This document shows, in pieces, positions 1,316-37,369 of a stretch of 64,000 nt of DNA. The position numbers and the translations under genes are program-made. The notes beneath the pieces are model-generated. The model was not told the DNA's origin and did no database searches. It saw only the letters and a list, made by a program, of their open reading frames with translations. How positions within the stretch are numbered: position 1 is the first letter of the stretch; each line of letters opens with the position of its first letter. The stretch is from Escherichia phage PECP20, in the sequence record OQ873415.1; one strand, written 5' to 3'.

Positions 1316-2176
1316 TTATACCGCCATTTTAGCTTTGATAGCTGGATGTGATTCGTAATTTTTAAGAATGAAATCACTCGGATTCATATGCTCTGTTACC
1401 CAATGAAGCTGTAATGTCGTGCTCCAATCAGAGAATCCTTCAGGCCAATCAATTTTAAGTTCACACAGTTCTTTAGGCTCACGACGAAGAACTTCTTTGC
1501 ATTGCTCAACATGGTTGCTGTAGATATGCGTGTTGCCGCCTGAGAACACTAAATCACCTGGGATAAGATTACACATCTTAGCCACAATATGCGTCAAGGC
1601 AGCGTACGAGGCAATGTTGAACGGCAGGCCCAAGAAAACATCTACACTGCGTTGATACCATTGTAAATCAAGATGTCCATTACGCACATTAAATTGATAG
1701 AACATATGACAAGGAGGAAGAGCCATTTGGTCAATTTCGGCAGGGTTCCAGGCAGAAACAATTTGACGACGATCAGTTGGTAATTTTTTAATACGGTCGA
1801 TTGTTTCAACTAATTGGTCCACACCACCGAAATCACGCCATTGTTTACCATATATAGGACCAAGTTCACCACTATGATAACCAAGGTCTTTTGCCTGATT
1901 TTCGTAATTATCGTCCCAAATAGTTTTACCTTCAATTAGACTACCATGAGTACGAAGACGTAATTCATTAACATTAGTAGAACCGGACATGAACCACAGT
2001 AACTCGGCAATACAAGCTTTCCATGCTAATTTCTTAGTTGTTACTGCAGGGAATCCTTTAGTCAGGTCCCAACGTAATTTAGTTCCGAACAGGGCAATTG
2101 TTCCTGTGCCTGTACGGTCGTCTGTTTCGTAGCCATTTTCTAGGATATCATTAATCAGGTATTGGTATTGTTTCAT
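1316..2176 (-). CDS. td: Thymidylate synthase, uninterrupted reading frame
   Basis: 286 aa; ThyA motifs (LPPCH-type active-site Cys region, QRSVDVFLGLPFN, DRRQIVSAWNP); same size as spliced T4 td product; ATGA overlap with frd. Confidence 0.95.
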   Translation of the reverse strand: MKQYQYLINDILENGYETDDRTGTGTIALFGTKLRWDLTKGFPAVTTKKLAWKACIAELLWFMSGSTNVNELRLRTHGSLIEGKTIWDDNYENQAKDLGYHSGELGPIYGKQWRDFGGVDQLVETIDRIKKLPTDRRQIVSAWNPAEIDQMALPPCHMFYQFNVRNGHLDLQWYQRSVDVFLGLPFNIASYAALTHIVAKMCNLIPGDLVFSGGNTHIYSNHVEQCKEVLRREPKELCELKIDWPEGFSDWSTTLQLHWVTEHMNPSDFILKNYESHPAIKAKMAV

Positions 2177-6879: not shown

Positions 6880-9800
6880 ATGGTTGACATCAAACGTAAG
6901 TTCAGGGCCGAAGATGGTCTTGACGCAGGCGGTGATAAGATAGTTAACGTTGCGCTTGCTGACCGCACAGTTGGCACCGATGGCGTGAACGTTGACTTTT
7001 TGGTGCAAGAAAACACCGTACAGAATTATGACGATACGCGCGCGTATACAAAAGATTTTATTGTTCTTTATGATAATCGTTTTTATCAAGCTTTAAGCGA
7101 TATTCCAGCTCCGGCAGGCCCTTTCTCTTTGGCTAAATGGAAGGCAACTCGTACAGATGCAGAATGGATTACAGTTCAAGGCGGAGATTTCCAATTATCA
7201 GTAGGTAACTCTATTGCGGTTGATACTTCAGCTGGCACTGATATTAATTTCACTTTGCCTAAAAATCCTTTAAATGGCGATACAGTTATTTTGTCTGATA
7301 TTGGCGGTAGAGTAGGCTATGTAAAAGTTCAAATTACTGCAGAGGCTCAAAGTATTGTAAACTTTAGAGGACAACAGGTTCGTTCAGTTTTAATGACGCA
7401 CCCAAAATCTAAAATGGTCTTCATTTTTAGCAACCGCCTATGGCAAATGTATGTTTCTGATTACGAACGTAATGCAGTCACAGTAACTCCTGCTAAGCCA
7501 TATCAGGCGCAACCTAACGATTTTATCATTCGACGTTTTACATCAGCCGCTCCTATTAATATTACATTGCCTCGCAATGCTAATAATGGCGATATTATTA
7601 ATTTAGTTGATTTAGACAAATTAAACCCGTTATATCACACAATTGTCAAAACTTACGATGATACAACTTCTATACGAGAAGCCGGTGTTCATGTAGCAGA
7701 AGGACGTAATACTGCGGAAGCATTCTTTGTTTATGATTCTGCTAATAGCTTATGGCGTGTTTGGGAAGGTGACCAGAAATCTCGTTTACGTATAGTTCGT
7801 AATGATACTGATTTACGCCCTAATGAAGAAGTTCTTGTTTTTGGAACTAATAATGATACAATCTCGACGGTAAATCTTACTTTGCCTACAGATATTTTGT
7901 CTGGTGATACTGTTAAAATATCGTTGAATTATATGCGTAAAGGGCAAACTGTAAAAATTAAAGCTGCTGAAGGCGATACAATTGCTAGCAGTATTTCTTT
8001 ATTACAGTTCCCAAAACGTTCAGAGTATCCACCTGATGCACAATGGGTTTCTGTTAGTGAGCTGGAATTTAATGGCGATACTTCGTATGTACCTGTACTT
8101 GAGTTAGCTTATATAGAAGATTATTCATCTGAAACAAAATATTGGGTAGTTCAGCAAAACACTGTAACCGTCGAACGAGTCGATGCATCGAGCAATACAA
8201 CTCGAGCTCGTTTAGGTGTTATTGCTCTTGCTTCTCAAGCGCAAGCAAATGTCGATTTAGAAAATGCTCCTGGTAAAGAACTTGCTATTACTCCGGAAAC
8301 ATTAGCAAATCGTACAGCAACTGAAACTCGTCGTGGTATTGCTCGTATTGCAACAACTGCACAAGTTAACCAGAATACCGATTTTGCATTCCAAGACGAC
8401 TTGATTATTTCTCCTAAGAAATTGAACGAACGTACAGCAACTGAAACCCGTAGAGGTGTTGCTGAAGTTGCAACTCAGGATGAAACTAATGCTGGCATAG
8501 ATGATACCACTATTATTACTCCTAAGAAATTGGATGCCCGTCAAGGTTCTGAAGTTTTATCTGGTATTGTAAAATACACATCTACGACTGGTACTACAGC
8601 GGCTACTGTTCGTGGTAATGCTGGGACTAACGTTTATAACAAAGCCGTAGATAATTTAACTATTTCTCCAAAGGCTCTTGACCAGTATAAAGCTACCCCT
8701 ACTCAACAGGGCGCAGTAATTCTTGCTATTGAAAGTGAAGTTATCGCTGGTGAATCACAAACCGGTTGGGCTAATGCTGTAGTGACCCCTGAAACACTAC
8801 ATAAGAAAACTTCTACTGATGGACGTATTGGTTTAATTGAAATTGCTACGCAAGCAGAAACTAACACTGGAACTGATTATACTAGAGCAGTAACGCCTAA
8901 GACGTTAAATGATAGGAAAGCTACGGAAGGATTATCCGGCATAGCCGAAATTGCTACGCAAGTTGAATTTGATACTGGAACTGACGATACTCGTATCTCG
9001 TCTCCACTGAAAATTAAAACTCATTTTGATTCTTCTGACCGTACCAGTGTTAATTCTGATTCCGGACTTATTGAAGAAGGAACCTTGTGGAACCATTATA
9101 CTCTTGATATTTCTAAAGCAAATGAAACACAACGTGGTACACTTCGCGTAGCGACTCAGGCAGAATCTAATGCCGGAACTTTAGATGATGTTCTTATTAC
9201 TCCTAAAAAACTTTTAGGGACTAAGTCCACTGAAACGTCTGAAGGCGTGATTAAGGTTGCTACTCAGGCTGAAACTGTAACAGGAACTTCTGCTAATACT
9301 GCTGTATCGCCTAAGAATTTAAAATGGATTGTCCAGGATGAACCAACATGGGCTGCTACTACGGCAATTCGTGGATTCGTTAAAACTTCATCTGGTTCTA
9401 TTACATTCGTTGGTGACGATACTCAAGGTAGTACCCAGGACCTGAATCTTTACGAGAAAAATAGTTATGCTATTTCTCCATATGAATTAAACCGTGTACT
9501 TGCTAACTATTTGCCATTGAAAGCTAAAGCCGTAGATAGTAATCTGTTAGATGGTCTAGATTCTCTTCAGTTCATCCGTAGAGACATCGACCAGACGGTT
9601 AATGGTTCTTTAAGTCTTACTAAACAGACCAACCTGAGTGCTCCTTTAGTATCTACAAGCACTGCTTCTTTTGGTTCCGAAGCATCTGTTACTCGTAGAT
9701 TAACTCTTAATGACTCTAGCGGTTCCGAAATAGTTTTCACTAAAGGAACTCAATCTCTTAGTAATAAAGAGAATTTCGTTGTTAGAGCATGGGGTAATAG

Positions 9801-10713
9801 CGCTACAGATGGTGCCCGTGATACAGTATTTGAAGCGGGTGACGAAACTGGATACCATTTCTATTCTCAGCGCGCTTCTGATAATAAAGTATCATTTAAT
9901 ATTAATGGAACACTTTATTCAACAGGCATTGTTTCTACAAATGGATTAAACGTTACAGGTGTTTCTACCTTTACCGGGCCTATTAGTGCTACAGGCGAAA
10001 TTGTTTCTAGTTCTCCTATTGCATTCAGAGCTATTAACGGTAACTATGGTGTTATGCTTTATAATGCTGGTAACAGTTCTTATATTGCATTAACTAACTC
10101 AGGTGACCAGACCGGGACGTTTAATAACTTACGCCCGATCACGATTAACAATGCCACAGGCCTAGTTCGTCTTGACAACGGTGTTCAAATCACAAGTGGT
10201 GCAACAATAACTACCGGTGGGTTAACTGTAAATAACAGGATTATTTCTAACGGCGTTAAAACTGCCACGGTTTATACCGATAAACCAACAGCTTCTACTG
10301 TAGGTTTTTGGTCTATTGACATTAACGATTCTGCTGTATATAGCCAATTCCCTGGATACTGGACGCGTGATAACAAAGGTAACCGTGACCAAGAAATTAA
10401 ATATCCTGGTACTTTGACTCAATTTGGTAATAGCTTAGATTCGCTTTATCAGGATTGGATTTGTTATCCTACAGGTGCAAATGGTGGTAGTATTCGTTAT
10501 ACTCGTACCTGGCAGAAAAATAAAGATGCTTGGACTTCATTTGCAATGGTATTTGATAGTGGCAACCCACCTTCACCTAGCGATGTCGGTGCTATCCCGT
10601 CTGATAATGCTGTTATTGGAAACCTTACTATTCGAGACTTCTTACAATTAGGAAATGTGAGAATTGTTCCAGACCCGGTTAACAAAACAGTTAAATTTAT
10701 ATGGGTTGAATAA
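6880..10713 (+). CDS. 34: Long tail fibre proximal subunit gp34
   Basis: 1277 aa; late promoter TATAAATA at 6838-6845 and SD AAGAGGA upstream; internal ~36-40-aa repeats typical of T-even fibre proteins. Confidence 0.95.
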   Translation: MVDIKRKFRAEDGLDAGGDKIVNVALADRTVGTDGVNVDFLVQENTVQNYDDTRAYTKDFIVLYDNRFYQALSDIPAPAGPFSLAKWKATRTDAEWITVQGGDFQLSVGNSIAVDTSAGTDINFTLPKNPLNGDTVILSDIGGRVGYVKVQITAEAQSIVNFRGQQVRSVLMTHPKSKMVFIFSNRLWQMYVSDYERNAVTVTPAKPYQAQPNDFIIRRFTSAAPINITLPRNANNGDIINLVDLDKLNPLYHTIVKTYDDTTSIREAGVHVAEGRNTAEAFFVYDSANSLWRVWEGDQKSRLRIVRNDTDLRPNEEVLVFGTNNDTISTVNLTLPTDILSGDTVKISLNYMRKGQTVKIKAAEGDTIASSISLLQFPKRSEYPPDAQWVSVSELEFNGDTSYVPVLELAYIEDYSSETKYWVVQQNTVTVERVDASSNTTRARLGVIALASQAQANVDLENAPGKELAITPETLANRTATETRRGIARIATTAQVNQNTDFAFQDDLIISPKKLNERTATETRRGVAEVATQDETNAGIDDTTIITPKKLDARQGSEVLSGIVKYTSTTGTTAATVRGNAGTNVYNKAVDNLTISPKALDQYKATPTQQGAVILAIESEVIAGESQTGWANAVVTPETLHKKTSTDGRIGLIEIATQAETNTGTDYTRAVTPKTLNDRKATEGLSGIAEIATQVEFDTGTDDTRISSPLKIKTHFDSSDRTSVNSDSGLIEEGTLWNHYTLDISKANETQRGTLRVATQAESNAGTLDDVLITPKKLLGTKSTETSEGVIKVATQAETVTGTSANTAVSPKNLKWIVQDEPTWAATTAIRGFVKTSSGSITFVGDDTQGSTQDLNLYEKNSYAISPYELNRVLANYLPLKAKAVDSNLLDGLDSLQFIRRDIDQTVNGSLSLTKQTNLSAPLVSTSTASFGSEASVTRRLTLNDSSGSEIVFTKGTQSLSNKENFVVRAWGNSATDGARDTVFEAGDETGYHFYSQRASDNKVSFNINGTLYSTGIVSTNGLNVTGVSTFTGPISATGEIVSSSPIAFRAINGNYGVMLYNAGNSSYIALTNSGDQTGTFNNLRPITINNATGLVRLDNGVQITSGATITTGGLTVNNRIISNGVKTATVYTDKPTASTVGFWSIDINDSAVYSQFPGYWTRDNKGNRDQEIKYPGTLTQFGNSLDSLYQDWICYPTGANGGSIRYTRTWQKNKDAWTSFAMVFDSGNPPSPSDVGAIPSDNAVIGNLTIRDFLQLGNVRIVPDPVNKTVKFIWVE
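8287..9324 (+). repeat. In-frame tandem repeats (~8 units of 36-40 aa) inside gene 34
   Basis: Recurring units I(T/S)PK.L...(T/S)TE..(R/S)G(I/V)A.(I/V)ATQ.E.N.GTD; DNA-level near-identity e.g. cgtacagcaactgaaac at 8311-8327 and 8431-8447. Confidence 0.8.
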
Positions 10714-10721
10714 GAGGTTAT

Positions 10722-11846
10722 ATGGAAAAATTTATGGCAAGGTTTGGACAGGGATACGTCCAAACGCCGTTTTTATCGGAAAGCAATTCAGTTAGATTTA
10801 AGCTAAGTATAGCGGGTTCATGCCCGCTTTCAACAACTAATCCGTATATTTTGTTCCAAAACGAGCCTTTAGGGTTGCAGTCTTTTGGTATTGGACTAAA
10901 TGTTAGGGTGATAAATCCGGAAAATGGAACTATAGTTGATAGTAAATTATACAATTTTGCGCCTACAAATAATGCAACTTCAGCTGCATTTATTTCGTTT
11001 GTTAATACATACGCGGATAATTTCATTTTCGCATTTATTTCTAATAACAAATTTAATTTGCCACCAGAAATAATTGAATGGTTTAAAGCTGCTGGGAGTT
11101 CAGTTATACCGTCAATTGAAGTTGCTAGTCTTGTTGATATTTCATATTCAGCGTTTTATGTTTCAGGTAAAAATACTATTGCATTAGAACACATAAAATA
11201 CAGTAATAAGAAAACAATTTCTGATTACGCAACCCCATTAGATATTGTATATGACTCTATTGCTGATATAGGTGCTACCGGCTATCCTAGACGTACATAT
11301 GAAGCTTTAGAAACGTTTTTATCTCCTGTTGGAGGAACTAACAATGAAATAAAAAGGATGCCTACGTCATCCCTTGTTACTCCTATCGCAAACTATGGAT
11401 TAAAGCCTGCAGATTTTCTTTATTTGAAATTTCAATTAATGGCTGATGAAGAATTATTAGAGGAAGGAACCACAAGACTTTCAATTCGTTTCTTTAAGTC
11501 TCCATCTAGCTCTCCTATATCATCTAAAGATATAAACTTTGATGGAACTGCCGGGGAGTGGAAGTTATATGAAGAATACGTTGAAATACCAGCTGAAGCT
11601 GATGGCTTTACAGTATATTGTTACCGTACGGCCTCAGTCGGTCAAGGTGGACTAAGAAATGTTATTTTCACTGAAGTATCATGTAACGGAAGTATAGCAA
11701 AACCCGCCGAGTTTGGCCTAAACGGTATTCGTGCTAATTACATCGATGAATCATTAATCGGTAATGATATAATGGACTTGCCTACCCAGTTATCTAACGA
11801 CACAGGTAAGGTATTTGGGCAGGAATTTAAAGAGTACACAGAATAA
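10722..11846 (+). CDS. 35: Long tail fibre hinge connector gp35
   Basis: 374 aa (T4 gp35 372 aa); follows gene 34 with 8-nt spacer. Confidence 0.85.
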   Translation: MEKFMARFGQGYVQTPFLSESNSVRFKLSIAGSCPLSTTNPYILFQNEPLGLQSFGIGLNVRVINPENGTIVDSKLYNFAPTNNATSAAFISFVNTYADNFIFAFISNNKFNLPPEIIEWFKAAGSSVIPSIEVASLVDISYSAFYVSGKNTIALEHIKYSNKKTISDYATPLDIVYDSIADIGATGYPRRTYEALETFLSPVGGTNNEIKRMPTSSLVTPIANYGLKPADFLYLKFQLMADEELLEEGTTRLSIRFFKSPSSSPISSKDINFDGTAGEWKLYEEYVEIPAEADGFTVYCYRTASVGQGGLRNVIFTEVSCNGSIAKPAEFGLNGIRANYIDESLIGNDIMDLPTQLSNDTGKVFGQEFKEYTE

Positions 11847-11905: not shown

Positions 11906-12562
11906 ATGGCCGATTTAAAAGCCGGAAGTACAGTTGGTGGTTCCGTCATATGGCATCAAGGCAATTTTCCTTTAATGCCAGCTGGCGATGACATCCTATA
12001 TAAAACATTTAAATTATACACCGAATATAACAAGCCAAAAGCGGCTGATAACGATTTCGTATCTAAAGCAAACGGTGGGACATATCTCAAAAAGGTAATC
12101 TTTAACGAAGGTGTTGCAGTCAAAACAGCAGATGACCAAACGAATGGTATTTTTTCTGGTGGTGGTGACGCCGCGACATTCGACCAAACAAACATGGATA
12201 TTGTTTCGTGGTATGGTATTGGGTTTAAATCATCTCAAGGTACAGGTGAAAGAACCGCTGTAATTGATACTCGCACCGGTAATATAAGTTCTAAAGGCGT
12301 TATTGAAGCATCTCAATTCAGAGCCACAACGTTAGCACCTTTAAATAATTACGACCTTACTCGCAAAGATTATGTTGATAGTCAAATAAATACAGTTAAT
12401 GCTAATGCAAACAGTCGTGTACTCCGTTCAGGAGATACGATGACCGGCGCGCTAACCGCCCCAAACTTTTTCTCACAGAATCCTGCATCTCAACCCTCGC
12501 ATGTTCCACGATTTGACCAAATTGTTATTAAGGATTCTGTTCAAGATTTCGGCTATTATTAA
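11906..12562 (+). CDS. 36: Long tail fibre distal connector gp36
   Basis: 218 aa (T4 gp36 221 aa); own late promoter TATAAATA at 11872-11879. Confidence 0.85.
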   Translation: MADLKAGSTVGGSVIWHQGNFPLMPAGDDILYKTFKLYTEYNKPKAADNDFVSKANGGTYLKKVIFNEGVAVKTADDQTNGIFSGGGDAATFDQTNMDIVSWYGIGFKSSQGTGERTAVIDTRTGNISSKGVIEASQFRATTLAPLNNYDLTRKDYVDSQINTVNANANSRVLRSGDTMTGALTAPNFFSQNPASQPSHVPRFDQIVIKDSVQDFGYY

Positions 12563-12570
12563 GAGGACTT

Positions 12571-15500
12571 ATGGCTACTTTAAAACAAATACAATTTAAA
12601 AGAAGCAAAACTGCAGGAGCACGTCCTGCCGCTTCAGTATTAGCCGAAGGTGAATTGGCTATAAACTTAAAAGACCGTGTACTTTTTACTAAAGATGACC
12701 AAGGAAATATTATTGATCTAGGTTTTGCTAAAGGTGGTAGTATTGACGGGAATGTTATTCATACTGGCAATTACAACCAAACTGGTGATTATACTTTAAA
12801 TGGCGTCTTCACACAGACGGGTAATTTTAATTTAACTGGTATTGCTCGAGTAACTCGCGATATTATTGCCGCCGGGCAGATTATGACTGAAGGCGGTGAA
12901 CTTATTACAAAAAGTTCAGGCACAGCACATGTTCGTTTTTTCGATAACAATAGTCGCGAACGCGGAATCATTTATGCCCCGGCTAATGATGGTTTAACTA
13001 CACAAGTACTTAATATCAGGGTTCAAGACTATGCCGCTGGTAGCGAAAGCACTTATGCATTTTCAGGCAGTGGACTATTTACTTCACCTGAAGTATCAGC
13101 ATGGAAATCTATTTCGTCTCCACAAATTCTAACCAACAAAGTCATTACTAATAATAAATCTACGGGTGATTATGACATCTATTCGATGGCAGACAATGTT
13201 CCATTGTCTGAAAGCACTACTGCTATTAATCATCTTCGTGTCATGCGTAATGCCGTTGGTTCTGGTATTTTCCATGAAGTTAAAGATAATGATGGAATAA
13301 CTTGGTATAGTGGAGATGGATTAGATGCTTATCTTTGGTCATTTACCTGGAGCGGCGGAATTAAATCAAGTCACTCAATTTCTATCGGTTTAACACCAGG
13401 TAATAAAGATTATTCAATATTAGGACCATCTAGCATTGCTTTAGGAGATAATGATACTGGATTTAAATGGCATCAAGACGGATATTATTTCAGCGTTAAT
13501 AATGGAACAAAAACGTTTTTATTTAATCCTAGCGAAACAACTAGCCTAAGAAAATTTGTAGCTGGATATTCTACTAATGGAACCGATTTAACTACTCCTC
13601 CAACTGAAAACTATGCTCTTGCTACTGTTGTGACATATCACGATAATAACGCGTTTGGAGATGGTCAGACTCTTTTGGGATATTATCAAGGCGGTAACTA
13701 TCATCATTATTTCCGCGGCAAGGGTACTACAAACATTAATACTCACGGCGGTTTGTTAGTTACTCCTGGTAATATTGACGTTATTGGCGGTTCTGTAAAT
13801 ATAGATGGTAGAAATAATTCTTCTACACTAATGTTTAGAGGCAACACAACAGGATACAGCTCGGTTGATAATATGGATATTAAAGTTTGGGGTAATACGT
13901 TTGTTGATCCAAGCGGAGGTATCCGTAAAAACATTATGGAAATTTCTGATGCAACTAGCTGGATGAGCTATATTCAAAGACTTACTACTGGCGAAGTAGA
14001 AATGAACGTTAATGGTTCATTTGAATCATCTGGTGTTACTGCTGGAGATAGAGGAGTTCACACAACAGGTGAAATTTCATCTGGAGCAATGAATGCACTT
14101 CGCATTTGGAATGCAGATTATGGAGCCATTTTTAGACGTTCAGAAGGTAGTCTTCATATTATTCCAACTGCTTACGGTGAAGGCAAAAATGGTGATATCG
14201 GTCCACTTCGCCCGTTTAGTATGGCTTTAGATACCGGTAAAGTTACTATTCCAGATTTACAATCAAGTTACAATACGTTCGCAGCGAACGGCTATATTAA
14301 ATTTGTTGGTCATGGCGCTGGCGCAGGTGGATATGATATTCAATATGCCCAAGCGGCTCCTATTTTCCAGGAAATTGATGATGATGCTGTAAGCAAATAT
14401 TATCCTATTGTTAAACAGAAGTTTTTAAATGGTAAAGCCGTTTGGTCTTTAGGTACTGAAATTAATTCGGGTACATTCGTTATTCATCATCTGAAAGAAG
14501 ATGGATCACAAGGCCATACGTCTCGTTTTAATCAAGACGGTACTGTTAACTTCCCAGATAACGTTTCTGTTGGCGGCGGTGAAGCTACTATTGCTCGCAA
14601 TGGTAATATCTGGTCTGATATCTGGAAAACGTTTACTTCTGCCGGTGATACTACAAATATTCGCGATGCTATTGCGACTCGTGTTTCGAAAGAAGGCGAC
14701 ACGATGACCGGCACTCTTTGGATTAATAAAGATGCCGCTGGAATAGTTCTTAATCCTCCTTTGACCAGTGATTCATCATTTATTCGTTCTGATACGGCCG
14801 GGGCCAATAATTGGTATATTGGTAAAGGCGGTGCCGACAATGGTCTAGGTTTTTACAGTTATGTTACACAAGGCGGTGTATATATAACAAATAACGGAGA
14901 AATATCACTTTCTCCTCAAGGCCAAGGAACATTTAATTTTAATAGAGACCGCCTCCATATAAACGGTACACAATGGGCCGCACACCAGGGCGGTGGTTGG
15001 GGAAATCAATGGAATCAAGAAGCACCGGTATTTGTAGATTTTGGTAATGTTGGTAATGATAGTTATTATCCTATTATTAAAGGAAAATCCGGTATTACTA
15101 ATGAAGGATACATATCTGGTGTAGATTTTGGTATGCGACGCATTACTAATACATGGGCACAAGGTATTATTCGTGTAGGTAATCAGGAAAACGGTTACGA
15201 CCCACAAGCTGTATATGAATTCCATCATAACGGTACTTTTTATGCTCCAAGCTTACTTAAGAGCAGTAGAGTATCAGCTGGTGGTGGTGACCCTGCATGG
15301 GGCGGGCCGTGTATTGTACTTGGAGATAACGATACCGGTTTGCTTTGGGAAAACGATGGTATTTTCAACGCATATGCAAACGGCCAAGGTGTGTTTAGTT
15401 TTAGACCTGGTTTAGCTCAGACATTCGGTGATGTTAACTTCCACTGTAATGCAGGTATGTATGTTCGTGATAACATTGATGTTAATGACGTTTATATTCG

Positions 15501-15822
15501 TTCTGATATTCGTTGTAAGTCGGAAATTAAGCTTATTAAGAACGCTCAAGAGAAATCTAAACTATTGGGCGGTTATACTTATCTGCTTAAAAACTCTGTT
15601 ACAGACGAAGTTAAACCGTCCGCAGGTTTAATTGCTCAGGAAGTTCAAGAAGTATTACCTGAACTTGTTTCTGAAGATAAAGAGACCGGACTGCTTCGTT
15701 TGAACTATAACGGTATTATTGGTTTAAATACAGCTGCAATAAACGAGCATACAGATGAAATCAAGGAATTGAAATCTGAAATTACCGAATTGAAAGCATT
15801 AATTAAATCATTGATAAAATAA
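12571..15822 (+). CDS. 37: Long tail fibre distal subunit gp37 with C-terminal intramolecular chaperone (peptidase S74-like) domain
   Basis: 1083 aa; N-terminus MATLKQIQFKRSKTAGARPAASVLAEGELAINL typical of gp37/gp12 family; C-terminal SDIRCK motif and coiled-coil tail resembling auto-cleaving chaperone domains. Confidence 0.9.
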   Translation: MATLKQIQFKRSKTAGARPAASVLAEGELAINLKDRVLFTKDDQGNIIDLGFAKGGSIDGNVIHTGNYNQTGDYTLNGVFTQTGNFNLTGIARVTRDIIAAGQIMTEGGELITKSSGTAHVRFFDNNSRERGIIYAPANDGLTTQVLNIRVQDYAAGSESTYAFSGSGLFTSPEVSAWKSISSPQILTNKVITNNKSTGDYDIYSMADNVPLSESTTAINHLRVMRNAVGSGIFHEVKDNDGITWYSGDGLDAYLWSFTWSGGIKSSHSISIGLTPGNKDYSILGPSSIALGDNDTGFKWHQDGYYFSVNNGTKTFLFNPSETTSLRKFVAGYSTNGTDLTTPPTENYALATVVTYHDNNAFGDGQTLLGYYQGGNYHHYFRGKGTTNINTHGGLLVTPGNIDVIGGSVNIDGRNNSSTLMFRGNTTGYSSVDNMDIKVWGNTFVDPSGGIRKNIMEISDATSWMSYIQRLTTGEVEMNVNGSFESSGVTAGDRGVHTTGEISSGAMNALRIWNADYGAIFRRSEGSLHIIPTAYGEGKNGDIGPLRPFSMALDTGKVTIPDLQSSYNTFAANGYIKFVGHGAGAGGYDIQYAQAAPIFQEIDDDAVSKYYPIVKQKFLNGKAVWSLGTEINSGTFVIHHLKEDGSQGHTSRFNQDGTVNFPDNVSVGGGEATIARNGNIWSDIWKTFTSAGDTTNIRDAIATRVSKEGDTMTGTLWINKDAAGIVLNPPLTSDSSFIRSDTAGANNWYIGKGGADNGLGFYSYVTQGGVYITNNGEISLSPQGQGTFNFNRDRLHINGTQWAAHQGGGWGNQWNQEAPVFVDFGNVGNDSYYPIIKGKSGITNEGYISGVDFGMRRITNTWAQGIIRVGNQENGYDPQAVYEFHHNGTFYAPSLLKSSRVSAGGGDPAWGGPCIVLGDNDTGLLWENDGIFNAYANGQGVFSFRPGLAQTFGDVNFHCNAGMYVRDNIDVNDVYIRSDIRCKSEIKLIKNAQEKSKLLGGYTYLLKNSVTDEVKPSAGLIAQEVQEVLPELVSEDKETGLLRLNYNGIIGLNTAAINEHTDEIKELKSEITELKALIKSLIK

Positions 15823-15827
15823 TAAAA

Positions 15828-15841
15828 GGGCCTTCGGGCCC
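15828..15841 (+). terminator. GC stem-loop between genes 37 and 38 (no U-tract; possible RNA stabiliser or weak terminator)
   Basis: GGGCC-TTCG-GGCCC 5 nt after gene 37 stop, followed by SD GGAGG of gene 38. Confidence 0.4.
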
Positions 15842-15852
15842 TGGAGGTTTAT

Positions 15853-16632
15853 ATGGCAGTAGTAGGAATCCCTGGTTGGATTGGGACTTCAGCCGTTGCT
15901 GAAACGGGACAAAGATGGATGACGGCTGCTTCAAGGGAACTTCGTTTAGGAAACCCTTCATGGATGTCCCAATTCGCGGGCCGTTCAAGAGAAATAATTC
16001 ACACACTTGGAGCAGACCATAACTTCAACGGTCAATGGTTCCGAGATAGATGTTTTGAGGCAGGTAGTGCACCTATAGTGTTTAATATCACCGGAAATTT
16101 GGTATCATATAGTAAAGATGTTCCATTATTCTTTATGTATGGCGATACGCCAAATGAATATGTTACTTTGAATATTCATGGTGGAGTTCATATGTGGGGA
16201 CGAGGTGGTAACGGTACTGTAAACGGAAACCCAGGCACTAATGGTGGCGATGTAATCCAAAATGATATCGGCGGAAGACTTCGTATTTGGAACTATGGTG
16301 TTATTGCATCAGGCGGTGGCGGAGGTGGTGCAGTGTCATTACAGAATAGCTGGGCGCCAAATGCTACAGCAGGTGGCGGTGGTGGTAGACCATTTGGCAT
16401 CGGCGGAGGTGGAGTTAATTGGCCGGGTGGTAATGCTAGTTATGACGCCCCGGGCGGGGCCGGTTACACTTCCCAATTCGGCGGAGGCAATGGCGGTGAT
16501 GCTGGAGGTCGTGGCGGAGATGGATGGGGTAATCACTTATCTAGATCTGGCGGTGGTGCTCCTGGCAGAGCAGTATTCGGAAGTTCACCGTCATGGGGTG
16601 CTACAGGCACAATCTACGGCTCCTGGATTTAA
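15853..16632 (+). CDS. 38: Tail fibre adhesin gp38, T2-type with glycine-rich motifs
   Basis: 259 aa; conserved N-terminus [11 protein letters not shown]...[46 protein letters not shown] followed by poly-Gly motifs and C-terminal GSWI, as recalled for T2/T6 gp38. Confidence 0.85.
16192..16560 (+). repeat. Glycine-rich motif region of gp38 adhesin (poly-GGN/GGT codon runs)
   Basis: Protein segments [36 protein letters not shown] separated by short variable segments. Confidence 0.8.
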
Positions 16633-16650
16633 ACGATAATACCTCTCAAT

Positions 16651-16658
16651 TATAAATA
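16651..16658 (+). promoter_or_regulatory. Late promoter TATAAATA for holin gene t
   Basis: Exact TATAAATA 20 nt upstream of ATG 16678, SD GGGAGG. Confidence 0.7.
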
Positions 16659-16677
16659 TTGATAAATGGGAGGTAAT

Positions 16678-17337
16678 ATGGCAGCACCAAAAGTATCATT
16701 TTCGCCTAGTGATATTTTATTTGGGTTGCTAGACCGCATTTTCAAAGATAACGCCTCTGGAAATATTCTTATTTCAAGAGTTGCTGTTGTAGTTCTTTTG
16801 TTCCTAATGGCACTAATATGGTACAAAGGGAATATTTTTATGGATTATTACGTGAGGTCGAAATATGATACTTACACAGAAGTAATTCAAAAAGAAAGAA
16901 ATACACGATTTGAATCTGCGGCTTTAGAACAACTACAAATAGTCCACGTCACATCAAGGGCGGATTTTAGTTCGGTGTATTCTTTCAGACCTAAAAATCT
17001 AAATTATTTCGTCGACCTTATTGCGTATGAAGGTAAGTTACCTAGCACAGTAACTGAAAAATCTATGGGAGGATTTCCTGTTGATAAAACGACAGCAGAA
17101 TATTCGGTCCATTTAAGTGGACTTCACTTTACTTCTAAAACAGATTTTGCTTTCTTACCTACCAAATCAAAAACTCCGGAACTGGCGTATATGTATAGTT
17201 GTCCTTACTTCAATTTGGATAACATATATGCGGGAACTGTTTCTATGTATTGGTATAAGGGATCGGATGTGCTAAATGAAGAACGCTTGGCTGCAATATG
17301 CAACCAAGCAGCAAGGATATTAGGGCGGGCTAAATAA
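16678..17337 (+). CDS. t: Holin T
   Basis: ATG at 16678 gives 219 codons beginning MAAPKVSFSPSDILFGLLDRIFKDN, near-identical to T4 holin N-terminus as recalled; single TMD; late promoter at 16651-16658. Confidence 0.9.
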   Translation: MAAPKVSFSPSDILFGLLDRIFKDNASGNILISRVAVVVLLFLMALIWYKGNIFMDYYVRSKYDTYTEVIQKERNTRFESAALEQLQIVHVTSRADFSSVYSFRPKNLNYFVDLIAYEGKLPSTVTEKSMGGFPVDKTTAEYSVHLSGLHFTSKTDFAFLPTKSKTPELAYMYSCPYFNLDNIYAGTVSMYWYKGSDVLNEERLAAICNQAARILGRAK

Positions 17338-25351: not shown

Positions 25352-27565
25352 TTATTTGGCCGCTTCCACGGCCTTCATGAATTTAACGATTTGAGCGACC
25401 TGTTCTTTAGAAAGAGTACCACGTCGTCCCATGTATTCTGACACAATATGATAATTGGTTTCGAATTCAATAACCATTTTATCATCATTATCGTAAGCGT
25501 TATCTTTAAGCTTATCGAAAATTTTAGCACATAGTTCTAACTTTTTATTCAGTTCTCTGTTAGTAGCACCTGAGAATCGATTCCATCCCCAACGATTATT
25601 TACTGTTGAGAGTTTTGCAAAATCTTTACTGATTTCTTTGTTTTTAAAGCTAAAATACTTACTAAGGAAGTTAAGCTCTTCATTACGAGTAATATGATTC
25701 AAATAAGGTTGAGCTCTACGACTTGGTGATACATACTCATCATAATCTACTTTATCGATTAGCATAATATAGTCGTTAATTGATTTTTCAAACAAACACT
25801 CTACTTCACCAAGTTTACGAACTTTCTTAGCAATCTGTTGGCGAACTACAGTGAACTCTTTAATACCTGACAAATCGGCAATACGAGTCAAGAAATTAGA
25901 ATCATAGTTCAACCAACCTTTATCTGCGTCAAGACATTCAGCATTAGAACGATTACGAACTATAGCATAACCTTGGATTTCATCTGCTTCACTTGCCGAA
26001 ATAAAGAGGTCTTCTGATACCCAAACATCGTTTTCATTCTTAAAGAATCGATGAGCACTTGGCGATTTAGGACGAGGCTCATTAGTCCGTTTCCTGACTT
26101 CAATCCATGGCTTAACGATTTGTAAAAGCTCTGAAGTCTTGTACATGTTAATGTTGTCGCCATCAAAGATAACTTTAAGGCGTTCCAGAAGTTTCATTGC
26201 ATCTTCGTCTGTAGGGTCAACGAATAGTACACTTTTACCAAAACCGCGTGGAACTTTACCAGTTAATTTAACCTCGTCTTTAGACATTTCAATTGAATTA
26301 AGAGCTCGCATTAATGGAACGCGTCCCTTAACGTCGTCAATAACAATTTCAACGTTTTTAATGTTAATGCCAATCAAACTGTTAATTGAAATGGTTGTCG
26401 TTGAGCTACCACTTTCACGAATACGACGAAGACGAGGGGATTCAACGATATCGTATACGACGCCAAGATTACACCACTCAGGCCCCATTTTAAAACGTTT
26501 GTACAACTCAGAATAAGTTAGTTGTTCTTTAGAGTATTTCAGTGATTCAATATTGGACCCGGCCTTTTCCATGTATTTACGAGCGGTATAGCCAAGAGAA
26601 TCAATTTCACGGAACACATGGCGTGGGTATTTACAATCAATCCATTTCTTAGAATCTTCAGCGAACAATTTAGCATCGATTTCTGCAACACGTTTATGGA
26701 TATTTGCTACTGTACGTTTATCAAATGACAATGCTTCACGAGACGGGGCTACATCTAGTTCACCCATAGGGAATTTAATATAAGCTGTAGTGCATCGCGT
26801 CATCATCCATGTTTGTTCTTTAATAACACTTCCGATCGGATATACAATACCACCATAAACAGCCATGATATTACCACGTTCACCCCATGGAGCTTCCTTG
26901 GCCAAATATACATCGTCAAATTCCGGGAAGTATTTGATATCTTTAACACCACGAACTTCTGCAATATCACCTAGAGGACGCATAACATATGCAATTTCGG
27001 ATGCAAACTTTTCAAAATCTTCCGGGTTAACCGGTACGACTACTTCTACACCCGTACGGTCATCAGGACCCATCTTATCTACAAAGGTCGGCTTAATTTG
27101 TGGACCCGTGTCATCTTGGTAGATTACGTAACCACGAACTTCACCATTGTGATAAGACGTAAGGTTAAACGTATCGGTATATGCTAGCGGAGCTTTAGAG
27201 CCGAGTCCGAATCCACCGATGAAATCGTTACTCGATGTTTTAGTTGAAGCAAAATATGAGTTATAGATTCCTGGCTCTTCGTCATTACCTCTAATGGTGA
27301 AATCACTCATACCAGGACCAAAGTCTCGAACTACAAAACGTGGGTCTAAACGACCTGGAGCCTGAACAATAAACTTATCAGTGCAACCGTTAAGAATTTG
27401 TCCATCGATACAGTTTGTAATTAATTCACGTACACAAGCCAATTCTTTGTTTGTATAAAGGTCATTAGACAAAATCTTATAAACTTTGCTATTGCCTTGA
27501 ATAGTGAATGCTGTGCTCTTACCGCCTGAACCAATAATCGTTTCTTTAGCCGTTTCAATAATCAT
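25352..27565 (-). CDS. rIIA: rIIA protein
   Basis: 737 aa; N-terminus MIIETAKETIIGSGGKSTAFTIQGN and GHKL-ATPase-like region as in T4 rIIA. Confidence 0.9.
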   Translation of the reverse strand: MIIETAKETIIGSGGKSTAFTIQGNSKVYKILSNDLYTNKELACVRELITNCIDGQILNGCTDKFIVQAPGRLDPRFVVRDFGPGMSDFTIRGNDEEPGIYNSYFASTKTSSNDFIGGFGLGSKAPLAYTDTFNLTSYHNGEVRGYVIYQDDTGPQIKPTFVDKMGPDDRTGVEVVVPVNPEDFEKFASEIAYVMRPLGDIAEVRGVKDIKYFPEFDDVYLAKEAPWGERGNIMAVYGGIVYPIGSVIKEQTWMMTRCTTAYIKFPMGELDVAPSREALSFDKRTVANIHKRVAEIDAKLFAEDSKKWIDCKYPRHVFREIDSLGYTARKYMEKAGSNIESLKYSKEQLTYSELYKRFKMGPEWCNLGVVYDIVESPRLRRIRESGSSTTTISINSLIGINIKNVEIVIDDVKGRVPLMRALNSIEMSKDEVKLTGKVPRGFGKSVLFVDPTDEDAMKLLERLKVIFDGDNINMYKTSELLQIVKPWIEVRKRTNEPRPKSPSAHRFFKNENDVWVSEDLFISASEADEIQGYAIVRNRSNAECLDADKGWLNYDSNFLTRIADLSGIKEFTVVRQQIAKKVRKLGEVECLFEKSINDYIMLIDKVDYDEYVSPSRRAQPYLNHITRNEELNFLSKYFSFKNKEISKDFAKLSTVNNRWGWNRFSGATNRELNKKLELCAKIFDKLKDNAYDNDDKMVIEFETNYHIVSEYMGRRGTLSKEQVAQIVKFMKAVEAAK

Positions 27566-27870: not shown

Positions 27871-28971
27871 TTACGCTGTGAAGATTTTATCCCACATCGC
27901 AACAACTGCATCTCGGTTATACTTCTTCCATACGGCTTCAGCACGTTTAACTCGAGCTTCGTATGTGTCAGTGAATTCTAATACAGCTTTTGTGTAAAGC
28001 GCAACTACTTCTTTCTTAGGAGTAGAGGAATCAATTTCTACACGCACAGTATCTGGGTCATATTCGAATGTCGCGTGCGGATAATCCTTAAAAACTAACT
28101 GAATCACAGGGACACCTTTAGAGATGGCTTCAATAGAACTATTCTCTACCGTACCCGTGTCAGGACACGTATTGATAAGTGCTTTAGCTGTTTTAAGACG
28201 TTCCATGATTTCACTGTGTGGAGCATCAATAATAACAGGATACTTAGCCGGTGGTGCCCATTTACTAGGACAGTATCCTGCACCATTTTCGCCTAGTGCT
28301 TTAATCGCTTCAAGAGCAACATCAGTACGACGCATTTTAGTGTCATAACGTTGTGCACTAATAATCAGATCAGTCGCCGGAAGAACTTCAGGTTTCTCAT
28401 TCAAACAAATAACCGGATAATCTTCGGCTTCAAACAACGGATTTGCTCGCCAATAATCATAATCAATTTTGTCAGTCAGACCTGAAGTCATATAACAATA
28501 TTTGCGTTCAAATTCACGGAAGGCTTTAGTAGGAGCATAACTCTTACCACCGTTCTTATGAATTTGAATAGTCTGGTCCCAAATTTGAACAATACCACGA
28601 GATACCGGTTCAAATGGTGTTGCCATAAAATTCTTATGAACTTTAGAGAGACCTGCGTCTTTAATTGCCTGAACGGTTAGTTTGGTCGGTTCCATTGTAA
28701 CAACGAAATCGTACTCATTAATGCCGGCTAGTTCAACAATCTTACGAGCCATAGTATAACTCATACCTAGACTGAATTTAGTCAGATGACCAACAGGATG
28801 ATGATTAACCTTCCAATCACCAAATGTGTCATTATCAAAACCGATATAATCAATATCGGCACCGATAGAAACTAAATATTTCAACACATTTAAATGTACT
28901 GCTTCAAGACCACCTTGTACACGTTCAGGATTAAATGGGACTGCACGAGATGGGATAAACATAACTTTCAT
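27871..28971 (-). CDS. putative GT-B fold glycosyltransferase (candidate DNA hmC sugar transferase)
   Basis: 366 aa; C-terminal donor-binding motif PDTGTVENSSIEAISKGVPVI matching the E-x7-E / EAxxxGxPVI signature of GT-B (GT4-like) enzymes; occupies the gene 60/mobA slot of T4. Confidence 0.6.
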   Translation of the reverse strand: MKVMFIPSRAVPFNPERVQGGLEAVHLNVLKYLVSIGADIDYIGFDNDTFGDWKVNHHPVGHLTKFSLGMSYTMARKIVELAGINEYDFVVTMEPTKLTVQAIKDAGLSKVHKNFMATPFEPVSRGIVQIWDQTIQIHKNGGKSYAPTKAFREFERKYCYMTSGLTDKIDYDYWRANPLFEAEDYPVICLNEKPEVLPATDLIISAQRYDTKMRRTDVALEAIKALGENGAGYCPSKWAPPAKYPVIIDAPHSEIMERLKTAKALINTCPDTGTVENSSIEAISKGVPVIQLVFKDYPHATFEYDPDTVRVEIDSSTPKKEVVALYTKAVLEFTDTYEARVKRAEAVWKKYNRDAVVAMWDKIFTA

Positions 28972-28997: not shown

Positions 28998-29015
28998 AAG
29001 CTCCTAAAGGAGCTT
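28998..29015 (-). terminator. Stem-loop overlapping gene 39 stop, followed by U-rich tract
   Basis: Plus text aagctcc-taaa-ggagctt; separates gene 39 from the glycosyltransferase gene. Confidence 0.4.
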
Positions 29016-30831
29016 AGGACATCCATTCTTTACGAAGTTCTGAATCATCACCCAACAACATTTCAAAGAGTTCTTTCCAATTTTCAGGAAGTTTAACTAC
29101 GTCGTACACAGGGTTCTGAATCATTTCACGATACTCTGACTTTTCAAGGGAGCCTAATCCCTTGATGTATCGAATACTATGCTTAGGCAGTGTATCTTTA
29201 ACTTCTTCATACTCAGCTACAGTATAAAACCATTTTTGAGTTTTGCCAATTTGTGCAATAATTACAGGTGTTTTAACAAAGCGAATACGTCCTTGTTCAA
29301 ACAATTCAGGCCAATTACTAAAGAAAGCAAGCAAAGCCGGATAGATACTTCCAAGACCGTCATGATCGGCATCGGTCATAATTGCAATATTACGATAGTT
29401 CGTATTCTCTGCCTTTTCACCAAGAATAAGACCTGTGATAGCACAGATATCGAATAACTCTTTGTTCTTCATCATATCAGCATATGACATACCCCAGCTA
29501 TTCATCACCTTACCACGTAATGGGAATCCACCGTGTAGTTCACGGTCACGAACATCAATGAGATATCCAATTGCCGAATCACCTTCTGTTAAGAACAATG
29601 TCGTATCTGCATCTTTACCACATTGGTTAGCTTTAATATGCTTATGAACCTTAGCTTTAGTTGCCTTTTTAGCTGCTTTAGTTTCTGCAGCCTTTTCTGC
29701 TGCCAATTTACGAGCTAATGCTGCTTCAACAATAGGCATAATCAAGGCTTCGTTTTTAAGAAGTGCCTGGGCAATTTTCTTAGCATCTAATTGGATATGA
29801 TTACGAATATCACCATACGTTGACGTTAAACGTTCTTTAGTCTGAGAATCAAAACGCATGTTGCTCATGTCTCGAATAAACATCAACATTGTGAGGCATT
29901 CTTTAACACGAGCTTTAGTGACTTCAATACCCTTATATTTCTTTTTAATACCTGGCAAAAGATGTTCGCAGATATCATCCATTACACATTCAACATGATG
30001 ACCACCATTTTTAGTATGGATGTTATTCACATAAGTTAAATGACGGAAGCCATCTGGTGATGTTGTGAATGCTATAGAGACTTTATCATTTTCTTGAATG
30101 ATGTTATCTTCACCAAATTGTTTAGCAAATCGTTTAAAATTACCATCGACCTTTTTACCATTAAATGTGAACTTGATATCAGGATAAACGACTGCCAATG
30201 TTTGAAGTCGATCTAAAGTAATATCTAAATAAATTTGAGATAAATTATGCTCTTCAAATGAAGTGAAATCAGGAGTGAAGATTACTTTAGTGCCTTTACC
30301 TTTAGATTTCTTAGAAGACCATGATTTGTTTTCCATTCCGTTTGAACAGTTAACAGTGATTTCATTTTCGCCATCTGACGTGATGCCTGTAAACAACGTA
30401 GAGAAGATATTAGTTAAACTACTCCCGACGCCGTTCATACCACCAGTCTTGCGTTCAGAGTCATCACCAAAGTTACCACCGGCCTTTGGAATAGTCCAGG
30501 CTGCTACAGGCCCAGGAATTTGTTCACCTGTTTGGTCGGTAACTAAACCTTGAGGAATACCACGTCCGTTATCTTCCACCGAAACTTGATTATTTTTAAT
30601 TTGCACATCAATTTTATTTGCAAACTTAAATGATGTACGAATAGCTTCATCAACCGAGTTGTCAATAATCTCATCGATTAATTTAACCAGGCCAGGAACA
30701 TATTCAACTTGTTGATATTTACCAAACAAAAAACGCTCGTGGGCTTCTTTAGCAGAAGAACCAATATACATACCACTACGTTTCTTAATATGTTCTACAT
30801 CTGACAATACCTTAATTTCATTTTTAATCAT
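29014..30831 (-). CDS. 39: DNA topoisomerase II large subunit, unsplit 39+60 fusion
   Basis: 605 aa single ORF; GyrB-like ATPase N-terminus plus TOPRIM/C-terminal region that in T4 is encoded by separate gene 60. Confidence 0.9.
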   Translation of the reverse strand: MIKNEIKVLSDVEHIKKRSGMYIGSSAKEAHERFLFGKYQQVEYVPGLVKLIDEIIDNSVDEAIRTSFKFANKIDVQIKNNQVSVEDNGRGIPQGLVTDQTGEQIPGPVAAWTIPKAGGNFGDDSERKTGGMNGVGSSLTNIFSTLFTGITSDGENEITVNCSNGMENKSWSSKKSKGKGTKVIFTPDFTSFEEHNLSQIYLDITLDRLQTLAVVYPDIKFTFNGKKVDGNFKRFAKQFGEDNIIQENDKVSIAFTTSPDGFRHLTYVNNIHTKNGGHHVECVMDDICEHLLPGIKKKYKGIEVTKARVKECLTMLMFIRDMSNMRFDSQTKERLTSTYGDIRNHIQLDAKKIAQALLKNEALIMPIVEAALARKLAAEKAAETKAAKKATKAKVHKHIKANQCGKDADTTLFLTEGDSAIGYLIDVRDRELHGGFPLRGKVMNSWGMSYADMMKNKELFDICAITGLILGEKAENTNYRNIAIMTDADHDGLGSIYPALLAFFSNWPELFEQGRIRFVKTPVIIAQIGKTQKWFYTVAEYEEVKDTLPKHSIRYIKGLGSLEKSEYREMIQNPVYDVVKLPENWKELFEMLLGDDSELRKEWMS

Positions 30832-36622: not shown

Positions 36623-37369
36623 TTAACCTTTAATCAGTTGGAATAATGATGCGCTAAGTGGTAGGCCACGTTTCAATTTTAATTTACCAATGAAACCAAT
36701 CTTTTCAAAACGTTGCAGACCTTGGATAACTTTATCATATGTATCGAAAAGCGATTCAGCGTCAGTTAATTTAGTTTTAGTTTTCCAGTCAGAGCCTTTA
36801 AGAAGAACGTTGAGTTTAGTAAGTTCATGGCCTTCTGCTTGATGCGAGCCATTAATGCGTGCTTTCAAAGCAACAATTCTAAGTTTAGATTCGTTAGATA
36901 AAGGTTGATTTTTCATCATGTTCGTCATATGCTTAACACGATTTTCACGTTTTGCTCGGATTTTTAAAATAGTATCATAAACCTTTTTGATTTGGGCCCA
37001 TTTCTTCTCGTCGAGATTAAGTTTCTCTACTTTACGGGCAGAAGGATTAGCGATACGCCTTGCAATGGCATCACGTTTCTCGATAAGTTCTTCTAATGTT
37101 AAATCGGAACGAGCCGTGTTATATTTTTTCTTAACTGGGATAACATTACCTTTAATGTAGCCGATATCGTTATCAAAACGTTCTAAGGATAATTTCTCAC
37201 CTTCAACAGAGTTATTGAAAGATTCACCTGAGTAAGCGCAGACCTTTTGATCAAGAATGTTTTTAAGGTAATTAAAGTCTAAGTTAAAATCCTTAGAGCG
37301 TCTCTTCGCAGAAGCTCTGGTGTGGTCAAGACGACGATTGATTTTGTTAATTTTATTATTTGATAACAT
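36623..37369 (-). CDS. srd: Srd-like protein (by position)
   Basis: 248 aa (T4 Srd 250 aa), between dda.1 and modB as in T4; basic, Lys/Arg-rich. Confidence 0.45.
   Translation of the reverse strand: MLSNNKINKINRRLDHTRASAKRRSKDFNLDFNYLKNILDQKVCAYSGESFNNSVEGEKLSLERFDNDIGYIKGNVIPVKKKYNTARSDLTLEELIEKRDAIARRIANPSARKVEKLNLDEKKWAQIKKVYDTILKIRAKRENRVKHMTNMMKNQPLSNESKLRIVALKARINGSHQAEGHELTKLNVLLKGSDWKTKTKLTDAESLFDTYDKVIQGLQRFEKIGFIGKLKLKRGLPLSASLFQLIKG

Follow-up and report, generated by a model that had tools for sequence, protein, structure and literature searches.

We analyzed a stretch of 64,000 nucleotides of Escherichia phage PECP20 (sequence record OQ873415.1; positions refer to one strand read 5' to 3', and the whole stretch is called the window below) and argue that, very likely, its genes 37 and 38 code for the distal half and tip of a long tail fiber of the T2/T6/S16 type. 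The assignment draws on the domain identities of the two gene products (gp37 and gp38), on the conservation of their motifs, on their predicted folds, on the pattern of variability along gp38, and on its near-identity to adhesins with assigned receptors. The two genes are located as follows:

12571-15822, plus strand: gene 37, long tail fiber distal subunit (1083 amino acids plus stop codon)
15853-16632, plus strand: gene 38, predicted receptor-recognizing tail fiber tip adhesin (259 amino acids plus stop codon)

The assembly of such a tip can be envisaged as follows. Three gp37 chains would trimerize from the C-terminus, with an intramolecular chaperone (IMC) of 106 residues nucleating the process and its terminal helices forming a coiled coil. 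After folding of the beta-helical tip, each chain would cut itself between R977 and S978, S978 serving as the nucleophile and K983 as the base, and the chaperone would depart. The resulting triangular tip of exposed DVYIR strands would be capped by one gp38 molecule (a 3:1 stoichiometry) via W9, W22 and W37, which come from the N-terminal helical domain of gp38; the remainder of gp38, a short beta-helix and a polyglycine-II (PGII) sandwich, would expose on its distal face five loops that bind the host receptor, for the gp38 allele of the window most likely the porin OmpF. The presence of gp38 in the virions and its binding to a receptor would be expected because its homologues in S16, PP01 and T2 behave in this way.

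The tail fiber tip system as such is already known, and the phage lineage has already been sequenced. What is added here is a precise prediction of the cleavage site, a specific prediction of OmpF as the receptor, and the recognition of wrong database labels, with no new mechanism involved; the main value lies in the correct annotation of gene 38 as coding for a host-range adhesin rather than an "assembly chaperone".

The gp38 adhesin and its likely receptor

Within gp38, the Pfam family Gp38_N (PF21721) matches residues 1-42 (74 bits, E = 8e-21), and the family GP38 (PF05268) matches residues 47-259 (279 bits, E = 4e-83), covering profile positions 1-218 of 218. Sequence searches against the Protein Data Bank (PDB) retrieved the receptor-binding domain of PP01 gp38 (9V85, E = 3e-73) and S16 gp38 (6F45_D, E = 2e-48), and the protein matches phrog_2056, "tail fiber protein; host specificity", with E = 1e-109. 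The AlphaFold2 model, built with 111 homologues, has a mean predicted local distance difference test score (pLDDT) of 86.9 and superimposes on 9V85 with a target-normalized template modeling (TM) score of 0.91 and an rmsd (root mean square deviation) of 1.5 A over 217 columns; the TM-score to 6F45_D is 0.80-0.83. A fold search of the PDB with this model found, besides these two structures, nothing under E = 3. Judging from sequence and model, gp38 is an adhesin of the T2/T6/S16 type. Of the alignments that the initial annotation had proposed as a check, those to S16 and T6 gp38 support this assignment, S16 gp38 being found at the E value given above and T6 gp38 sharing 64% of residues across 99% of the length. 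The following elements can be distinguished:

15853-15978, plus strand: N-terminal attachment domain, residues 1-42 (Gp38_N; tryptophan prongs W9, W22, W37)
15991-16629, plus strand: receptor-binding domain of beta-helix and PGII sandwich, residues 47-259 (AlphaFold2 model)
16216-16242, plus strand: loop A, residues 122-130 (entropy peak, indel hotspot)
16330-16371, plus strand: loop B, residues 160-173 (flanked by the invariant runs G154-G159 and G174-G178)
16408-16428, plus strand: loop C, residues 186-192 (entropy and indel peak)
16459-16485, plus strand: loop D, residues 203-211 (entropy and indel peak)
16516-16554, plus strand: loop E, residues 222-234 (entropy peak, largest indel hotspot)

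A conserved N-terminal attachment domain, which the initial annotation had recognized from the sequence, is thus delimited by Gp38_N to residues 1-42, and its three tryptophans align to those of S16 gp38 and are conserved among the gp38 homologues (W9 in 109, W22 in 110 and W37 in 95 of the 111). In S16, gp38 inserts three tryptophans into pockets of the gp37 tip (PMC6851490). The polyglycine part that had been proposed to follow is present as well; the two do not succeed each other directly, the central beta-helix being placed in between. Glycine makes up 35% of residues 110-259 versus 10% of residues 1-109, with runs of six, five, four, three and three glycines. Owing to the GGN codons, the guanine plus cytosine content rises to 0.48-0.50 across this part of gene 38, as compared to about 0.36-0.40 around it.

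The variable segments were defined by column entropy over the 111 gp38 homologues. Loop B is the segment of highest entropy in gp38 (mean 2.5 bits), and the segments are separated by invariant glycine motifs, namely, G116-R-G-G, G154-G159, G174-G178-R-P, G185 and others. They have their counterparts in loops A-E of PP01 gp38 and in the scheme of hypervariable segments (HVS) and glycine-rich motifs (GRM) of Trojet et al. (PMC3157838). The gp38 loops have been identified as receptor-binding (PMC12892980, PMC6851490, PMC3157838); for PP01, cross-linking connected loops D and E with OmpC; they contact loops 5 and 7 of O157 OmpC, and specificity is governed by loop E (PMC12892980). The proposal that the stretches between the glycine runs are the likely determinants of host range is therefore borne out inasmuch as the five segments coincide with the published receptor-binding loops. 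These loop segments would be the place to swap, which is useful for the prediction and engineering of host range in phage therapy.

As for the receptor itself, five phages with experimentally assigned receptors carry closely similar gp38 proteins:

AugustSocin (Bas38): gp38 identity 98.8%; primary receptor OmpF (PMC8594841 S5 Table)
AlbertHofmann (Bas47): gp38 identity 98.5%; OmpF, with ompF complementation (PMC8594841)
ChristianSchoenbein (Bas46): gp38 identity 95.8%; OmpF (PMC8594841)
fPS-2: gp38 identity 95.0%; OmpF plus lipopolysaccharide core (PMC7917993)
FL33: gp38 identity 93.8%; OmpF, minor TolC effect (PMC12032242)

Since gp38 of the window is 94-99% identical to these five adhesins of OmpF-dependent phages, OmpF is probably its receptor. 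Between gp38 of the window and that of Bas47, four of the 259 residues differ (A54T, S72G, I183L and R220W); counted from residue 83, only I183L and R220W remain, and both fall outside the five hypervariable segments, which are identical in the two proteins. The comparison with FL33 yields five differences in the receptor-binding region, namely, I183L, Y197L, D198T, A199S and G202S.

No feature of the sequence speaks against the overall reading, but some caveats attach to the receptor prediction. Single-residue changes in gp38 loops can switch receptors, as in SV76 and T2 (PMC3157838), so that I183L and R220W could matter, and a 100% identical gp38, the degree of identity found for CAU_ECP01, occurs in a phage isolated on E. 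coli O157:H7. It could be proposed, accordingly, that the adhesin uses a receptor other than OmpF (OmpC, FadL, Tsx or OmpA, for example), or OmpF together with a second one: few substitutions suffice to alter the specificity of gp38, T2 uses both FadL and OmpF (PMC3157838), and a minor effect of TolC was seen for FL31, FL33 and FL34 (PMC12032242). Nevertheless, we consider this possibility unlikely because all five independently tested phages are OmpF-dependent and because the hypervariable segments are the same as in Bas47, with I183L and R220W lying outside them. Also unlikely is the idea that the I183/R220 allele has a broadened or dual specificity, e.g. for OmpF variants of O157:H7 or for a second receptor; if true, it would explain the occurrence of this gp38 allele in the phage isolated on O157:H7.

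The C-terminal chaperone of gp37 and its predicted release

The initial annotation had taken the last approximately 110 residues of gp37 for an intramolecular chaperone of the peptidase S74 type. The domain is indeed there, as can be judged from Pfam, from the alignment to S16 gp37, and from fold comparison; its length, as delimited here, is 106 residues. The start of the annotated region at position 15490, too, is correctly placed: it corresponds to codon 974 of gp37 (V974), and the predicted scissile bond follows four codons downstream. The elements of this region are:

15295-15501, plus strand: distal beta-helical tip of the predicted mature fiber, gp37 residues 909-977 (aligned to the crystallized S16 gp37, 6F45_A)
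15502-15819, plus strand: IMC (Peptidase_S74) domain, S978-K1083, 106 amino acids (Pfam, 6F45_A, AlphaFold2 fold)
15502-15519, plus strand: S978-D979-I-R-C-K983, predicted autoproteolytic Ser-Lys dyad (conservation; aligned to the S16 site)
15706-15816, plus strand: long C-terminal helix of the IMC, residues 1046-1082 (AlphaFold2 pLDDT 87-97; heptads from sequence)

The protein ends with ...ELKALIKSLIK at position 15819, followed by the stop codon at 15820-15822. Pfam PF13884 (Peptidase_S74, "chaperone of endosialidase") matches residues 978-1033 with 45.5 bits (curated cut-off 22 bits) and E = 9.6e-12, spanning profile positions 1-57 of 58; like those of gp38, this score is well beyond what chance would give. 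The S16 gp37 construct (6F45_A) aligns to residues 909-1083 with E = 1.4e-30, the C-terminal helix included, and to the IMC stretch alone with E = 2e-24; this alignment pairs VSSDRRIKKDIK of the window with IRSDIRCKSEIK of S16 and places the SDIRCK motif on the S16 cleavage site DLNVS^SDRRIK (the caret marks the cut). A search with residues 901-1083 yielded 43 database homologues, all of which carry PF13884; being mostly short or fragmentary, they are adequate for judging motif conservation and not for a census of the family. In the resulting alignment of 44 sequences, none departs from D979 or K983, S978 is kept in at least 90%, and conservation extends to the GLIAQEV...LPELV core of the IMC.

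The AlphaFold2 model of residues 901-1083 reaches a pLDDT of 84-97 over the IMC and ends in a single long helix, which, given the heptad pattern of isoleucines and leucines (EIKELKSEITELKALIKSLIK, with the spacing read from the sequence), presumably forms a trimeric coiled coil. With this model as query, the top PDB matches in Foldseek were the ICA (intramolecular-chaperone auto-processing) domain of MyRF (7DC3, E = 8e-6, target-normalized TM-score 0.63-0.70) and the endosialidase IMC (3GW6, E = 1.5e-3, probability 0.97-1.0). The IMC stretch also matches the extreme C-termini of many distinct tail fiber families in PHROG, as would be expected of a portable C-terminal folding module.

Two caveats attach to the structural comparison. 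The global superposition on 3GW6 is weak (rmsd of about 16 A, TM-score 0.34-0.50), which is attributed to the comparison of a monomer model with a chain taken from a trimer, and a PDB sequence search with the IMC only gave just S16 gp37 and a marginal match to MyRF (E = 0.034). The comparison with endosialidase chaperones suggested in the initial annotation holds at the level of the predicted fold, the endosialidase IMC being recovered by the fold search only and not by the PDB sequence search.

That the gp37 C-terminus of such phages is processed is well documented. In T2 and T6, its proteolytic cleavage and the subsequent capping by gp38 are long established (PMC3157838, citing Drexler 1986), and S16 gp37 is reported to lose its last 113 residues by autocleavage at DLNVS^SDRRIK, exposing the gp38 docking surface (PMC7917993). 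In the crystal structure 6F45, gp37 chains are modeled for only 68-72 of the 204 residues of the construct, which is consistent with the loss of the IMC. At this site, DVYIR^SDGRLK is found in the fPS phages, with DVYIR^SD described as the motif of cleavage and docking (PMC7917993). Because the S16 and T2/T6 homologues are processed, we infer that the IMC of the window gp37 would be released by autoproteolysis after trimerization. The predicted cut, DVYIR977^S978DIRCK, would free 106 residues and leave a mature gp37 of 977 residues, with the tip strand DVYIR977 as the predicted docking surface for the N-terminal domain of gp38.

It could be argued, alternatively, that the S74-like domain is kept in the mature fiber or is cut off by some other protease: cleavage is here a prediction, and one aligned homologue has proline instead of the serine, so that not every member of the family need be active. 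This we hold to be very improbable in view of the intact, conserved Ser-Asp-x-x-x-Lys motif, of the reported autocleavage of the homologous domain in S16 and its absence from the crystal model, and of the exposed tip that docking of gp38 requires (PMC6851490).

As regards the body of the fiber, gp37 matches phrog_1699, "long tail fiber protein distal subunit" (E = 0), and its N-terminal part of approximately 640 amino acids is 34% identical to T4 gp37, with homology restricted to about that part. Residues 418-561 (positions 13822-14253) match the C-terminal trimerization domain of gp34 (PF21446, E = 6.5e-7) and the structures 4UXE/5NXF (E of about 1e-11); the gp37 proteins of T4 and FL33 also match this domain. 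The gp34-like match appears to indicate a shaft module common to the proximal and distal half-fibers.

Gene 38 and the T4-type chaperone

The initial annotation assigned gp38 to the T2/T6 type rather than to the chaperone type of T4, and this assignment holds: a BLASTP comparison of gp38 with T4 gp38 gives no similarity (E = 2), Pfam and the predicted fold identify an adhesin, and a T4-type identity of the protein was rejected on these grounds. The gp37 proteins differ in the same sense, as T4 gp37 carries Collar and Phage_fiber domains but lacks S74, and the window gp37 shows the reverse. The view that gp38 is a T4-like assembly chaperone or catalyst for gp37 folding, absent from virions, would agree with the names of the near-identical gene in the closest GenBank records and with the statement that T2-type gp38, too, acts as a chaperone before staying attached (PMC7917993), but it is hardly tenable given the lack of similarity just mentioned, the absence of any family match when T4 gp38 was searched against Pfam as opposed to the full-length GP38 adhesin of the window, the equality of the predicted gp38 fold with that of the crystallized adhesins, and the RefSeq record of T4, which itself calls the "gp38" of the T2 subfamily unrelated to T4 gp38.

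Near-identical genes are labeled "long tail fiber assembly chaperone" or "assembly catalyst" in CAU_ECP01, Shf125875, OLB35 and others (records PQ572755, KM407600, MH992122, OR525701 and HQ829472). Such names were inherited from T4 and mislead where gp38 is of the adhesin type.

Exchange of tip cassettes

Comparison of the window with FL33 and fPS-2 reveals a mosaic. Up to about residue 600-700, gp37 agrees with its counterparts in these phages at more than 90% of positions; in the distal shaft, the tip and the IMC, the identity is only 11-59%. At the nucleotide level, the identity amounts to about 45-73% up to about position 15960 (approximately codon 36 of gene 38), beyond which it jumps to 85-98% for the rest of the gene. 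FL33 and fPS-2 share ten substitutions in the N-terminal domain of gp38, and their IMC represents a different S74 subtype that keeps the SDxRLK motif (Pfam E = 2.9e-14 for FL33). There are, then, two S74 subtypes at the gp37 C-terminus, one ending with ...KALIKSLIK (the window) and the other with ...ISKYFKF (FL33 and fPS-2), each paired with a particular variant of the N-terminal domain of gp38, although the receptor-binding domain is almost identical.

Because of this identity pattern along genes 37 and 38 and of the shared substitutions in the N-terminal domain, the attachment domain of gp38 moves with the tip and the IMC of gp37 as one cassette, and the receptor-binding part of gp38 moves as another. 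The OmpF-type receptor-binding cassette, starting from about residue 37, is found on two unrelated cassettes of tip, IMC and attachment domain, in Mosigvirus and Tequatrovirus backbones. A "lock-and-key" association of subtypes has already been described by Trojet et al. (PMC3157838), and so has modular exchange (Trojet 2011; Tetart 1998).

Genome context and other features of the window

The tail fiber genes of the window follow the canonical T-even order, 34-35-36-37-38-t. The neighboring genes and the signals around gene 38 are:

6880-10713: gene 34, long tail fiber operon (1277 amino acids)
10722-11846: gene 35, hinge protein gp35 (374 amino acids)
11906-12562: gene 36 (218 amino acids)
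15827-15842, plus strand: GGGCC-UUCG-GGCCC hairpin in the spacer between genes 37 and 38, of the C(UUCG)G tetraloop type
15843-15847, plus strand: GGAGG ribosome-binding site of gene 38, directly after the hairpin
16651-16658, plus strand: TATAAATA, T4-type late promoter consensus in the spacer between genes 38 and t (read from the sequence)
16666/16678-17337: holin gene t (223 amino acids counted from 16666)

Gene 38 starts 30 nucleotides after gene 37 (33 counted from stop to start), on the same strand and in the same frame. Hairpins of the C(UUCG)G type are classic for the intercistronic regions of T4. The one found here folds with -12.3 kcal/mol, an energy that is not separable from that of shuffled sequences (z = -1.03), and a regulatory role of this element was considered and set aside. 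The late promoter consensus, annotated as a predicted late promoter at the equivalent site of fPS-2, marks the downstream boundary of the fiber operon. A database protein of 303 amino acids (from an "E. coli" record) combines Peptidase_S74, Gp38_N and GP38 and looks like a read-through between the IMC and gp38 or a gene-calling artefact. In gp35, residues 58-131 give a weak match to Pfam ILEI (interleukin-like EMT inducer; 30.2 bits versus a cut-off of 27, E = 6.7e-7).

Across positions 15400-16700, the window has 99.9% nucleotide identity to Escherichia phage CAU_ECP01 and 95-99% to CCU7, TH12, AugustSocin, Shf125875, KMB38, AlbertHofmann and PHB12. As Shf125875 (97.6% at the tail fiber locus, the nearest classified relative) and AlbertHofmann belong to Mosigvirus, the backbone is, by sequence, Mosigvirus-like; an assignment to Tequatrovirus was rejected on the same grounds. 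The DNA polymerase gene of the window shares 98% identity with those of typing phages 3 and 6 for E. coli O157, among others.

Elsewhere in the window, thymidylate synthase (td; 1316-2176, minus strand) is an uninterrupted open reading frame (ORF) of 286 amino acids that matches the full Pfam profile and has no td intron; the T4 td gene carries one. The large subunit of topoisomerase II (29014-30831, minus strand) is encoded by one ORF of 605 amino acids, in which the domains HATPase_c, DNA_gyraseB and TOPRIM_C are recognized; it has the fused gp39+gp60 form, in contrast to the split genes 39 and 60 of T4. Between rIIA (25352-27565) and this gene lies an ORF of 366 amino acids (27871-28971, minus strand) for which Pfam gives nothing; its PHROG family is phrog_8302 (E = 1.6e-222), whose function is unknown. 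An ORF of 248 amino acids (36623-37369, minus strand) is similar to the anti-sigma factor Srd (phrog_1400, E = 6e-100), with weaker matches of its N-terminal half to PHROG families of the HNH and endonuclease VII types. Scans of the whole window found no Rfam match at gathering thresholds and no tRNA.

Comparison with known systems

The closest systems are those of the Bas47 group. AlbertHofmann, CAU_ECP01, Shf125875 and AugustSocin share the architecture and almost the whole sequence with the window, with point differences only; gp37 of Bas47 has the same length (1083 amino acids) and is 100% identical over the last 83 residues (1001-1083, within the IMC). In gene 38, there are short patches of lower nucleotide identity to these closest relatives.

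Among the structurally characterized fibers, S16 (6F45) shares with the window the gp37 IMC with its SDxRxK motif and a gp38 with three tryptophan prongs, beta-helix and PGII sandwich; it differs in that its gp38 is 45% identical, has other loops and binds OmpC of Salmonella, and in that the gp37 tip before the cleavage site diverges, as noted for the fPS phages (PMC7917993). PP01 gp38 (9V85) has the same fold, as judged from the superposition given above, at 61-64% identity; the loop sequences of the window are of the OmpF-group type, whereas loops D and E of PP01 contact the OmpC of O157. With T2 and T6, the window has in common a gp37 that is processed at its C-terminus (in the window by prediction) and capped by a gp38 of about 260 amino acids with the GRM/HVS organization (PMC3157838), the 64% identity of T6 gp38 included; the hypervariable segments and the receptors are different, being Tsx for T6 and FadL and OmpF for T2.

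T4 resembles the window in the gene order 34-35-36-37-38-t and in the homologous N-terminal two-thirds of gp37. The difference lies at the tip, where T4 gp37 bears its own receptor-binding C-terminus (Collar, fiber repeats) and no S74 domain, and in gp38, which in T4 is an unrelated chaperone of 183 amino acids. Finally, the IMC of endosialidase K1F (3GW6) and the ICA domain of MyRF (7DC3) share with the C-terminal domain of gp37 the family, the Ser-Lys motif, the C-terminal position and the predicted fold with a terminal helix, at 13-23% sequence identity; they differ in the passenger, which in the window is a thin beta-helical fiber tip that would then be capped by a separate adhesin, as opposed to an enzymatic tailspike or a transcription factor.

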